Made by a program: the position numbers and the translations under genes. Positions 55,003 to 60,662 of a stretch of DNA of 64,000 nt are shown here, one piece after another. Under the pieces are notes generated by a model that saw nothing but the letters and a program-made list of their open reading frames with translations, was not told the DNA's origin and did not search any database. Position 1 is the stretch's first letter; the number at the start of each line of letters is the position of its first letter. The DNA comes from Pseudogymnoascus verrucosus. Taxonomy: Eukaryota. Location: assembly GCA_001662655.1 (NCBI GenBank), contig KV460228.1; one strand, given 5' to 3'.

Positions 55003-55869
55003 TTAGGCCTCATAGCAATAAACCCGCTGACTGTTTTCGCCGAGAAAATATCCGAGTGTCACTGCTTCCATAATAATGCCAGAAGCCCAAGAATCTATCT
55101 GTTTACAAATATACCCATCATCCCACCCAAAGACCTTGCTCCTTGAATGCATATCATAATCAGGGCTCTGCGACAGCGTAACTCGACGTTTTGTCTCTTC
55201 TAGGATGTGGTCTTGCCAGGATGCCTCGTACCTTCGTTTCAGCGGTGCGCTGTAAATGCCATACAAGCCCGGAAACAACACAATATCCAGCTGGCAGTAG
55301 TGAATCATTTCGGGCTTTATGGGCCGCTCGTTCAAAACTTCGAACCGACCGCCCTTCTCAGGACCAAAGAATCGATAGCCAGTCTCTTTGGCGTGGCGCC
55401 ATTCAGACCTCTCACGAACAGAGAAGGGGCTATCCTTCTCAATGCATTCCACTAGGCCTACCGCAGGCCTCCCACGGGCTGCGGACCGCATAAGCTGAAG
55501 ATCTATGATCCCATCGACAGAGACCTGGAAAAGACTGAACAGGGCATCTGAGTCGTTCCGGATATCAAAGACAACCTTTGGGATGGTTGGAGATTCGAGG
55601 ATGCTTTTTAATGACGTTCCGCTGGCGGTGGTGGTTGAGAAAGCGGCTTCGTTCAGGCTGTGGATATCGATGAGGTAGGTCTTCTTGGTGGGAACGATGT
55701 GGAGCGTGAGGAAGGATATGGAGCCGCCGCGGCCAACTGGGATTCCCTCCAAGTTGATGTACAGAGAGGGAGGCTCAACTGCAAGTCTGCAAATGCTGTC
55801 AAGTAGAGATAGAAGATTCTCCTCTGAGTCTATGACTGTGGTATTGCTTTTAGGCGATTTGCTTGACAT
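55003..55869 (-). CDS. DEDDy-type 3'-5' exonuclease domain protein
   Basis: LYINLEG (Exo I), KVVFDIRNDSDAL (Exo II), IIDLQL and YCQLDI (Exo III). Confidence 0.85.
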   Translation of the reverse strand: MSSKSPKSNTTVIDSEENLLSLLDSICRLAVEPPSLYINLEGIPVGRGGSISFLTLHIVPTKKTYLIDIHSLNEAAFSTTTASGTSLKSILESPTIPKVVFDIRNDSDALFSLFQVSVDGIIDLQLMRSAARGRPAVGLVECIEKDSPFSVRERSEWRHAKETGYRFFGPEKGGRFEVLNERPIKPEMIHYCQLDIVLFPGLYGIYSAPLKRRYEASWQDHILEETKRRVTLSQSPDYDMHSRSKVFGWDDGYICKQIDSWASGIIMEAVTLGYFLGENSQRVYCYEA

Positions 55870-56456
55870 GATTGGCGTTGGATTGTCGTGATATTATCGT
55901 GGTGATAGGAAAGGAATGAAAATAAAAGAGAAGGGTGAGGCGAACGAAGAGGTTGCTTAACAGTACGTGGCGAGGCTGGCGAATGGGAGTAGCAGTGAAT
56001 GATTACACATGCTTATTCCAATAACAAAGCCCTCAAACAGCATGACGAATGGCACTGCTATCCATCAAACTCTATTACAATCAGAAAGCCGTGTAAAAGG
56101 GGGAGAGCTACTTAGCTGCCTTTTCACTCATGAGAAAGCAGAGTTTGCAAATATAAATCAATGTACGACATCCAAAAGAACTTACTGGGTTGTTCATATA
56201 AACAAGAAAAAGATACCAGCATTAGACGCGACGTAAGCATGCTGTCACCGATAGCAAGCAGGCCACAAGGCGGTAAAGACAGCAGGCTTTTGATTCCTCC
56301 ACTTTCTTTAGCTCTATGATAGCAAGATGTTGAATAAGATCCCACCCCCATTCCTTCCTTTTAGCAACGCAGATCCACCATAGATGTCCCATATCCTCCA
56401 AGTTCCAATCAGTAGCAACGCCAGCCTCTCGCCCTCATCAACAGCAGTCATTTCAT

Positions 56457-57232
56457 TTACTCATCCTCGTCGTCAAGGTCGACCGTTTCGACTTCAGCTT
56501 TCTTAGGAGCTGCAGCGCCGTTCGTCTTCTTGGCGGAAACGGCAGGCTCCTCATCTCCAGCCTCCTCCTCCTCTTCTTCGCCCTTGGCAGCCTCATCGTC
56601 TCCCTCGGCTTCCTCCTCCTCCTCCTCCTCCTCCTCCTCATCACCGTTCTCCTCAGTCAAGGCTGCAGTGCCGACGACCTTGCGCTTCTTCACTGGAGGG
56701 GCAACTTCTACTGAACAGTTAGAAGATGACAAATGTATGAGTTGGAGTGTTTGGATGGAATTGCATGATGGAAAGCGGCTAGGGCGAGCGGCCATCGATA
56801 TTGGCGGTCTTGGAAGTATGCTTGGCGGTGCTTATGATGTTTCTTACCTTCGACCTCCTCCTCCACTTCGGAGCCGCTGGCATCCTCATCTTCCTCGGAT
56901 TCTTCGGAATTCCCTCCTGGAGCTTCATCTTCCGAATCTTCGTATCTGTAATGAGTGATTTGTTAGTCAATGTTCTTGGAAGATGCTGATGATGTCACAG
57001 AGCCACGGCGCATTTCACGGCGCAAAGGGCGTGGATAGCTGTCTAAAACGGCCTGTATGATAAAGCCAAGCCGATTTATGAGTTCCCGGCGCCCAATTAA
57101 GGCAGAATGTGATGGGCAGGGTCATAGAAACATATTAAGGATGAAATCGACTCACTCCTCTTCCTCCTCGCTTTCATCCGAAGGAAGCGCAACGAGCTCC
57201 TCGTCTTCAGCCTTTCTCTTACGAGTAGACAT
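56457..57232 (-). CDS. Small, highly acidic, probably nuclear protein (3 exons)
   Basis: MSTRKRKAEDEELVALPSDESEEEE|..EDSEDEAPGGNSEESEEDED..|VAPPVKKRK..DLDDEDE*; canonical introns and basic NLS-like patches. Confidence 0.8.
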
Positions 57233-58140
57233 TCTCTCTCCAATTGCTTCAAAAATGTATCTGGAAATACGAAAAAATGACACGAGATGGCAGGATACTG
57301 CCGGAGAGGTGATTTCGGTGATGGTGTTGATGGGAGAATGTGACAGAAGTGGAAGGGATGTTGGAATCTGGGGGGGATTTTATTCACTCATGGGCTGGAG
57401 CTGACCACCGACGGCCCGCTGGTAAGGTGGTACGCTGGTTTACCCTCCAGAAGCTCGGACCTGCATAGCTCCACTTTGTTGGTCAATGCGCAATGCGAGT
57501 CAACGCTTAGCTGCTTCAAGTTCGCGCTGGAGCGCGATGTAAGATCTTACATGTTGACTGTCGAGACTCGAGTTTCTGAGAGAAATTAAATGCGACGATG
57601 GCATTAGAGACATCGTTATTCGCAGGATCAAGACTTGTCCTGTTGTCATTGTCTCATACCTTGTATGCGAGTAGCTTGAGACAACACAACCCGGCAAGGG
57701 ACATGATCGACCCTCTCGTCCTGTCTTTTCGATACAACGAGAGAGAGCAAATGAGGTCAGGTACAGATCTCAGATGTAAGCTAAGCTATTGGTAAGGCTG
57801 AAGTGCGATGTACAGTAGTATTGGCTAGAACTTGGCTGATCCGTTCCAAATGAAGGCAATTGTCCTTACAGGCTACAACAGACAGCGGTCACAGTATGCA
57901 GGAAGTCATGTAAAGGTGTAAAAGTTTGGTAAAATATGTTCTTTGATTCTATTGACATTTTCGATAATATTTGAATCTTTGGATTGTTAGTGAAGGCCCT
58001 AACAATGGAGAAAAAAAGAGCTTACCATGTGGATGTGACGAGAAAATTTGATCGTTGTGAAATACCTGAAACACGTCGGTGTTAGCTATTTGTGCACATG
58101 GATGCAAAATATATGTTCTTTGAAAAGAATGACAGCAAAA

Positions 58141-58293
58141 GCATCTTTCAGGCTGTGAATTTACGTTAGCGTTGATCGTAAACTCAGGAAAGGTTGCATG
58201 ACATACCTCATTAAATCAGATTTTGTGTTGATGCGTTCAGTGACGGACCGAAGTCCGCCTCAAACAGTGTGAATAAGTATCATCATATGATGC
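58141..58293 (-). ncRNA. snR51: Box C/D snoRNA snR51 orthologue, interrupted by a 54-nt intron (58153-58206)
   Basis: Box C ATGATGA at 58286-58280. Guide TATTCACACTG plus D' TTGA is complementary to 25S CAGUGUGAAUA. UUCG hairpin. Guide CTGATTTAATGAG is complementary to 18S CUCAUUAAAUCAG. Box D CTGA at 58151-58148; terminal stem GCATC/GATGC. Confidence 0.88.
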
Positions 58294-58401
58294 AAGTGCT
58301 CGCCATGTGAAAAGTGAAGAGATCTGTGTATATGTACCTTGGACGAGTCAGCGAGAGTCCAAGTTTCGTTTGTGAAGCCAATTCGTATGAATGGTTTTGT
58401 A

Positions 58402-58526
58402 TCAGCTGACGAGTTCTCAACATGCAATCCATCACTGCTAGCTCCAAAGAGTTTGTACGCTCTTTGTGTTTCGTGAGTTCGCAATGTGGACACAGTCTGT
58501 CCGCCCGTTCGTTCAAAGTTCGTCAT
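58402..58526 (-). ncRNA. snR70: Box C/D snoRNA snR70 orthologue
   Basis: Box C variant ATGACGA; guide ACGGGCGG plus D' CAGA is complementary to 18S CCGCCCGU, and the +5 rule gives the yeast C1639 equivalent; C' GTGATGG; box D CTGA at 58405-58402. Confidence 0.82.
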
Positions 58527-58635
58527 GGAAAACGCAGGGCAAACGGCGAGGAGTAGTAGTAATGTACCTGAGGGAGAACTGTCAGCAAGAAGTCCCAAGA
58601 TATATGTAACAATAAATCCAATAAGTTTTAAGAGA

Positions 58636-58722
58636 GGTCAGACAAGGCTGAAACTGAAGACAGAATCTACATGATATATTCGGAATGAGGAATTCCTATA
58701 GTTGTCACTTGATCATCACACC
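58636..58722 (-). ncRNA. snR41: Box C/D snoRNA snR41 orthologue
   Basis: Box C GTGATGA at 58719-58713. Guide AGTTTCAGCCTTG plus box D CTGA is complementary to 18S CAAGGCUGAAACU (yeast G1126 equivalent). A second guide TAGGAATTCCTC precedes D' CCGA. Confidence 0.87.
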
Positions 58723-59273
58723 GGATGTGCGTTTTGCACTGCATAATAATAATAAAATATCTGAACGAACCTTTTGAATTTTTTTGTGGGGGTGGTGACA
58801 GTGCACAATTGAGCTGTTAAGCGTCTATAAATTGAAGTTAGCCAGCTGCACAGAACAGTAAATGGTAACTATCAATGGGACCAAGTTGAAAGCTCAGAGT
58901 TCTCCGTAGAGTGGTTAATCCCCATTATTGTGTAAGAGTTGGATTGTTCAGTTGATAGGTTCTCATCACAGAAGAACTGATCGCATAGAAGTATGGGAGT
59001 TATCTTACCATTGAGCAGCTGCCACCATGAGCTGTCGATGAACATCATCGAATATTCCGTTGACAACAAAAGCGAAGGAGAATTGAAAGCTCGGAAAAGT
59101 TTATGAAGTCTGCTAGCGCCGTCGGTTAGCGCAAGTCCCTTAGTCGGTACGCTAAGGGCCGCGTCATGTGACGTATCCCGGAAGGTGGCGGAATGTTGAC
59201 TCCCACCCTCCCCGAATTGCTTCTTGTTTGAACAACCTTACGTTTACCTTGGTGAACATAAGGTGTATCAATC

Positions 59274-60662
59274 ATGGCTCCATCCGGTGGAATATGGGCT
59301 CCTATAGCCTTGAATGTTTTAAAGTAAGTAGATCGAAAGACCCCATCATTGCCACTTGCACAGGCTTTCTCATTTGAGTCCCCCACTAACACGCAAGTCA
59401 GGAATGCCATACGGGCTTCACAACTTATCAAGAGGCGCCTCGCAGAGGCAGCCCAACGCACTGCGACTGCTTCGTCTGAGCCAGTCCCAATCCTTGTTCG
59501 AAACACCCCGAGACACCCCATCAGCAAGGCAGCCTGGCTGCGCCAGAGCAAGGGAAGATGGTACACAACACACAGCACGATCAACGCCACCGTCCGGCGC
59601 TTTATGAGCACCGGCTCTGCGAACGGCGTCAAATTCGATCGGTCCTCGTTCCCCAAGTCCGCCATCGGCACGACCATCCTGCGCTCCACCACCCGCGCTC
59701 CGTTCTGCTCGACACTGCGACCAAACCTTACGGGTGGCGCTCTCCCCAGAACTGCCGGCGGATACAGCCTCGGAGGCGGACGAACAGGCGGGGCAAGATA
59801 CTTCTCTCACACTCCCGCCGCACCAGCACAGGTCGTGAACAATGTCTCTGCCGCCGTCCGCGCCTTCTGGCTCTCCGGCCACAAGGCCCAATTCGACGGA
59901 CTCACCGAACGCGGTGACAAGCGCTACCGCACCATTAGCGCCCTCCAGGACGAGACGAGCCGCAAGATGTCATCTGTCACCAAGGCCTCCCCCGGCGCCT
60001 TCGTTGACTTCCGCTTCAACCCCACCGTCACGGCACTCAGCCCACTCGCCGCCGCCCTGCCCACCGCACACTTCGCCGAGGCACCAACCCTGAACACGGA
60101 CGGCTTCCTCGACGTTCTCTCGGTCGACTTCGCACGTGCCCTCAAGGACTTCACAGCCATCATGAACGATCTGAAGCGGCTATCCGCACTCGGAGACCTC
60201 AGCGTGACACTCGAGCCTGGCTCCATCCTGCGCGTCCGCTTCCCCGGCTGCGATGCCGACACCGTAGAGCGCCTCTGCGACGAGATCGGCGTGCGTCGCG
60301 GGATCATTCAGCAGGATCCCGATTTCGACGCCAGTTATGGGGGTCAAGTCGCGCTGCTCTTTCCTTTCGCGAGTACCACCGGTAAGGCACTGTCCAGTCC
60401 TGGAGGGTCTTTGAGGTCGCAGACGGGTCATGAGTTGGAGTATGACCAGCTCAGTGAGTATAAGGAGTTTGACGAGTTTGGCGATAACCCCTGGCTCTCG
60501 TCGCCGGATGGCTATGAGACGATGGAGGAGCTGAGCGAGACGGAGAGTATGTATTTTGGACAGGGGGGTAGTCCGGGTCTGAGTCGGCATGACCAGGATG
60601 CGGGTTATGTGGAGGGTATCTATCGGTTCATTGAGACTTGTGATGGTGCCAGGAGGAATTGA
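59274..60662 (+). CDS. Conserved filamentous-ascomycete hypothetical protein (2 exons)
   Basis: MAPSGGIWAPIALNVLK joined through a GTAAGT..CTAAC..CAG intron (ending 59401) to a 420-codon exon with strong codon bias (RYFSHTPAAPAQVVNNVS, VRFPGCDADTVE). Confidence 0.85.

Follow-up and report, generated by a model that had tools for sequence, protein, structure and literature searches.

Abutting introns and probable recursive splicing of a snR41-snR70-snR51 host RNA in Pseudogymnoascus verrucosus

Introduction

How can guide RNAs be freed one by one from neighbouring introns between which no exon is left? The question is raised by a cluster of box C/D small nucleolar RNA (snoRNA) units on the minus strand of a 64,000-nucleotide (nt) stretch of DNA from Pseudogymnoascus verrucosus (contig KV460228.1 of assembly GCA_001662655.1), the whole of which is called the window here. 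An earlier note, made from the letters of this stretch, had proposed that snR41, snR70 and snR51 lie in back-to-back introns with zero-length exons, and that recursive splicing of an almost exon-free host RNA releases them. Our analysis leads us to regard the cluster, with a probability of about 0.85, as the filamentous-ascomycete form of the fungal snoRNA cluster III, spliced recursively across zero-nucleotide exons. The arrangement seen in the window is that of the published architecture of this cluster and is as such already known (Luo et al. 2013, PLoS One 8:e58547; PMC3596301).

Results

Three snoRNA introns without exons between them

Each of the three snoRNAs has an intron of its own, as had been claimed. 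Intron I (58770-58568, minus strand, like all features described here; 203 nt, GTTCGT...CAG, branch motif GCTGAC at 58586-58581) holds snR41, intron II (58567-58338; 230 nt, GTACAT...AAG, branch motif GCTGAC at 58352-58347) holds a snR70-like unit and intron III (58337-58066; 272 nt, GTACAT...CAG, branch motif GCTAAC at 58086-58081) holds snR51. Intron II directly abuts intron I at 58568/58567, where the minus strand reads ...TCCCTCAG/GTACATTA (CAG/GTACAT), and intron III abuts intron II at 58338/58337, which reads ...CGTCCAAG/GTACATAT (AAG/GTACAT); the letters that the earlier note had given for these two junctions are exactly in place. The boundary at the end of intron III, 58066/58065, reads ...GTTTCAG/GTATTTCA (CAG/GTATTT). 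At all three AGs, GCTGAC or GCTAAC stands 10-16 nt upstream, with the branch A at 58582, 58348 and 58082, and the distance from box D to the branch A is 52 nt for snR41 and 50 nt for the snR70-like unit (all by manual count).

The snR41 unit (58636-58723) was matched by the Rfam family RF01860 (Afu_455) with 70.5 bits, above the gathering score, and by the snR41 model itself with 26.9 bits. The middle unit (58402-58526) consists of a box C, ATGACGA, at 58526-58520, an element ACGGGCGG and a box D, CTGA, at 58405-58402. A search for AGGTACAT on both strands of the window yielded two copies, both of which are the two exon-less junctions. The count is not significant by itself, since two or more copies were present in 37 of 100 shuffled sequences; it is the conservation of the junctions, described below, that exceeds chance, and not the number of copies of AGGTACAT in the window.

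RNA joints across the three introns

The RNA evidence is drawn from relatives of the window's organism that are about 90-99% alike to it. Four runs were aligned to the window: X1, which is labelled 'RNA?' (a guess) and comes from organism A, mostly 90-99% alike; X21, which is also from organism A and consists of a single colinear contig of 21.5 kb, and hence is DNA; X19, a DNA-like run from organism D; and X4, a soil metatranscriptome that is 95-99% alike. All joints seen in contigs of the relatives have GT..AG ends on the minus strand.

One joint in X1 connects 58771 to 58567 and skips the 203 nt of intron I; record 4 of this run consists of 26 letters of exon 2 (58824-58771; 54 nt, ending in ...CAAAAG) followed by 58565-58335 without a break (cut +2). 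Another joint in X1 connects 58771 to 58337, skipping 433 nt, with 25 letters on its shorter side. Record 17 of X4 joins 58780 to 58067 with six letters between, which in our reading corresponds to a joint from 58771 to 58065 after a slip of one letter in a run of A, so that all three introns are gone. The joints coincide precisely with 58567, 58337 and 58065, and no letters of a micro-exon are left in the end product. Since the DNA of X1's organism, represented by X21, is colinear with the window, the joints are not genomic deletions. The series that had been predicted in advance, with 58771 joined to 58567, then to 58337 and then to 58065, is thus present in full in the RNA contigs of the relatives (X1, X1 and X4, respectively). 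A further joint in both X1 and X4 connects 59009 to 58824, skipping 184 nt, and marks the upstream end of exon 2. Stretches with little or no coverage in X1 and X4 (58854-58967, nearly empty, and 57885-57998, empty) were given no evidential weight.

Conservation of the junctions in fungal relatives

For a broader sample, metagenome contigs were scanned with a neutral pattern that ends at the snR51 guide and is blind to the sequence after it. The scan yielded at least 116 environmental fungal loci which, together with the window, make up 117 sequences with 98 distinct cores; all counts for relatives given here and below refer to the loci listed. After the guide, 88 of the 117 sequences have an intron of 46-68 nt (G/GT...AG/N-CTGA), referred to as the nested type, and 20 have box D directly, with 5 that show another arrangement and 4 that are too short to tell. 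The junctions were tallied over distinct nested-type loci with enough flanking sequence, and chance levels were taken from 200 shuffles.

At the snR41/snR70 junction, a branch motif followed by AG/GT was present in 45 of 45 loci (shuffles: mean 3.0, maximum 7), and the same was true of 70 of 70 loci at the snR70/snR51 junction (mean 6.4, maximum 13), so that the conservation of AG/GT that the earlier note had suggested checking was indeed found. We also applied a rule that is independent of the GT and takes the first AG at least 6 nt past the last branch motif. By this rule GT came next in 42 of 42 scored loci at the snR41/snR70 junction, with 3 loci that lack a strict motif, and in 57 of 66 scored loci at the snR70/snR51 junction, with 4 such loci. 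The distance from box D to the branch A has a median of 54 nt (range 50-63, n=45) for snR41 and of 56 nt (n=59, one outlier at 169) for snR70, which together with the 52 and 50 nt of the window bears out the spacing of roughly 50-60 nt that had been noticed there. Hirose and Steitz in 2001 reportedly described a positional rule for intronic box C/D snoRNAs, with which this spacing fits. The flanks of the relatives' loci are themselves not conserved.

Most of the relatives also have the element ACGGGCGG between their snR41 and snR51 units, and because of this and of its place in the cluster, which is that of snR70 in Luo et al. (2013; PMC3596301), the middle unit is named snR70-like. A few loci (L006, L008, L031, L033, L053, L060 and L074) have box D right after the snR51 guide, yet show abutting AG/GT between the snoRNA introns, which suggests that the loss of the exons is wider or older than the nested intron.

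An intron nested in snR51 and a real third exon

The snR51 gene (58141-58293) is split. Its 5' part (58293-58207) contains box C at 58286-58280 and ends with the guide (AATGAG), and its 3' part (58152-58141) contains box D at 58151-58148. The Rfam match to snR51 (58290-58204, 48.1 bits) stops at the guide CUGAUUUAAUGA, which equals the Rfam consensus letter for letter, and leaves box D unaligned. Right after the guide follow GTATGT (from 58206), GCTAAC and CAG (to 58153), and then C-CTGA-AA-GATGC. Excision of this 54-nt intron (58206-58153) sets box D beside the guide (AATGAG/C-CTGA) with the spacing of the Rfam consensus, and GATGC (58145-58141) can then pair with GCATC (58293-58289) in a terminal stem of 5 base pairs (bp). 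It is only once 58206-58153 has been removed that boxes, terminal stem and a guide 1-2 nt before box D come together. When 56000-60000 was scanned for pairs of box C and CTGA under a terminal-stem criterion, the split snR51 was the only pair with a terminal stem of at least 4 bp.

The nested intron is removed in RNA: a joint from 58207 to 58152, skipping 54 nt, is present in both X1 and X4 with 110 and 115 letters, respectively, on the shorter side, and the RNA depth within the intron is zero in both runs (by bin arithmetic), whereas the DNA run X21 covers it. Record 16 of X4 (58543-58207 plus 58152-58038) lacks the nested intron and has the junctions 58338/58337 and 58066/58065 intact, and since the outer junctions are unspliced in this molecule the nested intron can leave first. 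The earlier note overlooked this intron, and the true box D of snR51 lies beyond it.

The note had also offered 58066/58065 as a possible third zero-length exon. This does not hold, for a real exon of 40 nt (exon 3, 58065-58026, starting with GTATTT) lies there and is kept in spliced RNA contigs (X4 records 15 and 17, X1 record 2). GTATTT at 58065 serves as a donor in none of the aligned contigs. In both X1 and X4, loose ends at 58026 go on with letters that resemble 57976 onward, and with the retention of 58065-58026 this shows exon 3 to be real and to be followed by an intron of 49 nt (intron 5, 58025-57977; GTAAGC...AAG, branch motif ACTAAC, no snoRNA).

An automatic rule for the third junction gave 29 of 67 in relatives and was dropped because it picked false branch motifs. 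Inspection by eye of 55 loci found AG/GT after the snR51 intron in many and plainly lacking in others; the real exon after this intron starts with GTA in many, but clearly not all, of the relatives.

Donor quality and the order of removal

At positions +1 to +3 the exon-less donors have retained G, T and A, the A at +3 being present in 47 of 48 loci at the snR41/snR70 junction and in 73 of 77 at the snR70/snR51 junction. At +5 a G was found in no more than 19 of 48 and 23 of 77 loci, respectively, whereas the nested introns of these genes have it in 71 of 72. A trade-off between G at -1 and G at +5 is known from studies of 5' splice sites, and the degenerate +5 position is probably due to the fixed pairing at -2 and -1 that the preceding acceptor's obligatory AG provides and that eases the need for the G.

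Several contig ends in X1 bear on the order in which the introns leave. Record 6 extends four letters beyond 58769, which agrees with GTACAT being shared by both paths, and its end fits a fork between the continuations at 58567 and 58337. Record 4 ends at 58335, and record 3, which spans 58364-58311, starts 30 letters before that end. A loose end at 58335 consists of 25 letters that resemble 58062-58038. These ends may reflect a fork in a 31-mer graph after GTA, with GTACAT (unspliced) on one branch and GTATTT (58338 joined to 58065) on the other. Such a fork, for which the contig ends are the basis, would imply a molecule from which the snR51 intron has been removed and in which the snR70 intron is retained. 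The internal GTA donors might then act alone, with no prior ligation to exon 2, a suggestion to which we give slightly less than even odds. If it is true, removal is not strictly 5' to 3', contrary to the conclusion drawn from expressed sequence tags (ESTs) by Luo et al. (2013; PMC3596301), and the alternative of one donor with three acceptors that these authors left open would be settled in the negative.

Proposed mechanism and alternatives

We propose that the cluster is expressed as a non-coding, multi-exon host RNA from the minus strand whose useful products would be its introns, with four box C/D snoRNAs held at one per intron. The exons between the snR41, snR70 and snR51 introns have been lost, so that the AG of one intron directly meets the GTA of the next. 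Removal of the snR41 intron would ligate exon 2 (...AAG) to GTACAT at 58567 and thereby remake a donor for the snR70 intron; the donor at 58337 would be remade likewise, and in the end product 58771 would be joined to 58065. Excision of the inner 54-nt intron from snR51 would place box D beside the 18S guide and close the terminal stem, and may take place while the outer junctions are still unspliced. Each lariat would presumably be debranched and then trimmed by exonucleases to the small nucleolar ribonucleoprotein (snoRNP), as in the known pathway for intronic snoRNAs. Recursive splicing of a nearly exon-free host, as put forward in the earlier note, is supported by the intermediates and the end product in the relatives' RNA contigs and by the conserved internal GT(A).

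Some observations weigh against this interpretation. Every directly listed joint starts at the donor of exon 2, and one donor with three acceptors would give the same pattern. The joints from 58771 to 58567 and to 58337 come from the single run X1, with its 'RNA?' label, and are flagged 'between: not known'. Among the public runs searched, none contained half or more of the stretch's sampled words, so that the RNA is not from the window's own organism. The data are at the level of contigs, in which lariats, the order of events and the mature snoRNA ends are not visible. As to the snoRNAs themselves, neither the snR70-like unit nor the U45-like unit of the first intron (see below) has a significant Rfam match; with the search extended to E values of up to 10, both yielded chance-level matches only (snoR26 with E 7.7 for the U45-like unit; sR55 and others). 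The pairing of the cluster's guides with ribosomal RNA is putative, and for snR51 the putative target is Am100 in 18S, according to a listing in PMC3938493.

The pattern of joints could arise if a single functional donor, at 58770, chose among the acceptors at 58568, 58338 and 58066, in which case the intron-retaining forms would be dead ends and the snoRNAs would have to be cut from lariats that hold several of them. In favour of this is that the joints listed for this stretch all start from exon 2 and that the 42 ESTs of Luo et al. (2013; PMC3596301), who name the possibility themselves, follow the same pattern. We nevertheless consider it improbable, as it does not explain why each internal AG is followed by GT, mostly GTA (45 of 45 loci at one junction and 70 of 70 at the other, where shuffled sequences give about 3 and 6), a conservation that is more than a role as acceptor would require. 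Moreover, a separate branch motif is retained in every internal intron, spaced as usual from the box D of that intron, and several snoRNPs that shared one lariat would have to be cut apart by an endonuclease. The contig ends in X1 (records 3 and 4, together with the loose end at 58335) would fit a joint from 58338 to 58065 with intron II retained.

A slightly less probable account is that splicing is incidental and that the snoRNAs are mainly freed from an unspliced polycistron by endonuclease cuts, as in Saccharomyces cerevisiae, where the snR41-70-51 transcript follows the Rnt1 pathway. Unspliced contigs do span all junctions (X1 records 3 and 5, X4 record 16), and the snoRNAs of the yeast homologue are found in unspliced transcripts (discussion of Luo et al. 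2013; PMC3596301). This account is countered by the donor, branch and acceptor signals and the fixed spacing between box D and branch, which are kept across diverged loci whose flanks are not conserved, and by snR51, which cannot form unless the spliceosome removes the nested intron. Least probable of all, and very much so, is that other splice sites are used and leave small real exons between the snoRNA introns. Weak alternatives do exist in the sequence, such as GTTTGC about 20 nt after 58567, but the joints match 58567, 58337 and 58065 to the letter and no letters are added in the final product, so that the internal exons, which the earlier note had named as one of the outcomes that would speak against it, were not seen. 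Recursive splicing across zero-nucleotide exons therefore remains our preferred explanation.

Further units and the layout of the host gene

Upstream of exon 2, intron 1 (59008-58825; 184 nt, GTAAGA...TAG, branch motif GCTAAC) is delimited by the GT..AG joint in X1 and X4 and holds a U45-like box C/D unit (58969-58894) with box C, GTGATGA, at 58969-58963 and box D, CTGA, at 58897-58894. The name U45 for the unit of intron 1 was taken from Luo et al. (2013; PMC3596301). An element of this unit, AACAATCCAAC, is common to 21 of 56 loci, the window included. In many relatives ACTCTAGAATTAC precedes its box D, whereas the second guide of the window has diverged (58978-58894) and reads ACTCTACGGAGAAC instead, as it does in L066 and L074. 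The GGAGAAC of the diverged guide can pair with GTTCTTC just 5' of box C, where stems are unusual in box C/D RNAs.

The 3' part of exon 1 covers 59031-59009; at 59031 the X4 contig stops and goes on with adapter-like letters. The longest open reading frame (ORF) with an ATG in the spliced host is 55 amino acids, as expected of a non-coding host.

Downstream of snR51, 35 of 45 nested-type loci contain a U55-like unit that ends in CACCTTGGAGAACTGA. This element is absent from the whole 64-kb window at up to 2 mismatches, and the place of the unit is taken by the 49-nt snoRNA-less intron (57977-58025). L038, the most window-like locus listed, looks alike in this respect, and L066 still has the U55-like unit.

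The contig depth of X1 reaches 1147 at the upstream edge (59253-59300), which probably stems from a strongly expressed neighbouring gene. A Pfam search with four neighbouring ORFs yielded one match, a 3'-5' exonuclease domain (PF01612, E 8.6e-07) at 55003-55869 on the minus strand, unrelated to the snoRNA cluster.

Discussion

Comparison with known systems

The closest counterpart is cluster III of the Euascomycetes, for which Luo et al. (2013; PMC3596301) describe an 'intron-intron-intron' structure in all species of the group that they examined, together with an 'intron B' that holds no snoRNA and lies inside snR51, with the antisense element before it and box D after it. According to section 8 of their paper, intron I alone is missing from 18 of 42 ESTs, introns I and II from 14 and all three from 10, and none shows another order; they propose either stepwise splicing from 5' to 3' or one donor with three acceptors. 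They also state that introns associated with U45 and U55 lie at the ends of the cluster in 'nearly all' species. The window agrees with this cluster in having snR41, snR70 and snR51 in the same order on one strand (the middle unit being recognised here by its boxes and ACGGGCGG), in the loss of both interior exons, in the intron within snR51, in the U45-associated intron at one end and, as observed here in relatives, in intermediates without intron I, then I and II, then all three. It differs in that the other end has a 49-nt intron that contains no snoRNA, in place of a U55-like unit, and in that contig ends of the window's relatives hint at removal of intron III before intron II, which the ESTs described by these authors never do. 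The window itself is thus one more instance of an arrangement, a nested intron and stepwise products that were published in 2013. What is new is modest: a tally of 116 environmental loci with an invariant AG/GTA, the finding that the donors are degenerate beyond +3 and a hint of a flexible order.

Zero-size exons are also found in yeasts. Mitrovich et al. in 2010 reportedly described snoRNA polycistrons of Candida, Debaryomyces and Yarrowia with zero- or one-nucleotide exons, and are cited by both Luo and Donovan. For Candida, 'nested and recursive splicing' in snoRNA polycistrons is described by Donovan et al. (2016; PMC5033589), who also refer to Debaryomyces hansenii, in which the exon between snR41 and snR70 has size zero. 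Like the cluster in the window, these polycistrons have non-coding hosts with one snoRNA per intron and use recursive and nested splicing that regenerates splice sites; they differ in belonging to another lineage and, in the account given in that paper (PMC5033589), no intron inside snR51 is reported for them. The S. cerevisiae snR41-snR70-snR51 cluster has homologous snoRNAs in the same order, as shown by the Rfam alignments of snR51 and snR41. There, by the account of Luo et al. (PMC3596301), the transcript is unspliced, and box D directly follows the snR51 guide, whereas here the snoRNAs are intronic and snR51 is split.

Further afield are long animal introns with recursive splicing at ratchet points, and a zero-nucleotide exon of BOT1 in Cryptococcus neoformans, a species for which Burke et al. 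(preprint, 10.1101/224170) describe recursive and nested splicing. Here too AG/GT regenerates the donor, and intermediate and final junctions are detectable. In the cluster, by contrast, the introns are short, with lengths of 203-272 nt, the regenerated donors are weak past GTA, and the purpose is to obtain a single snoRNA from each lariat, not the shortening of a very long intron. The cluster offers a clean natural example of short introns that are spliced recursively, combined with a guide RNA that is itself spliced together inside another intron, and as such is of use in studies of donor recognition where no exon lies upstream.

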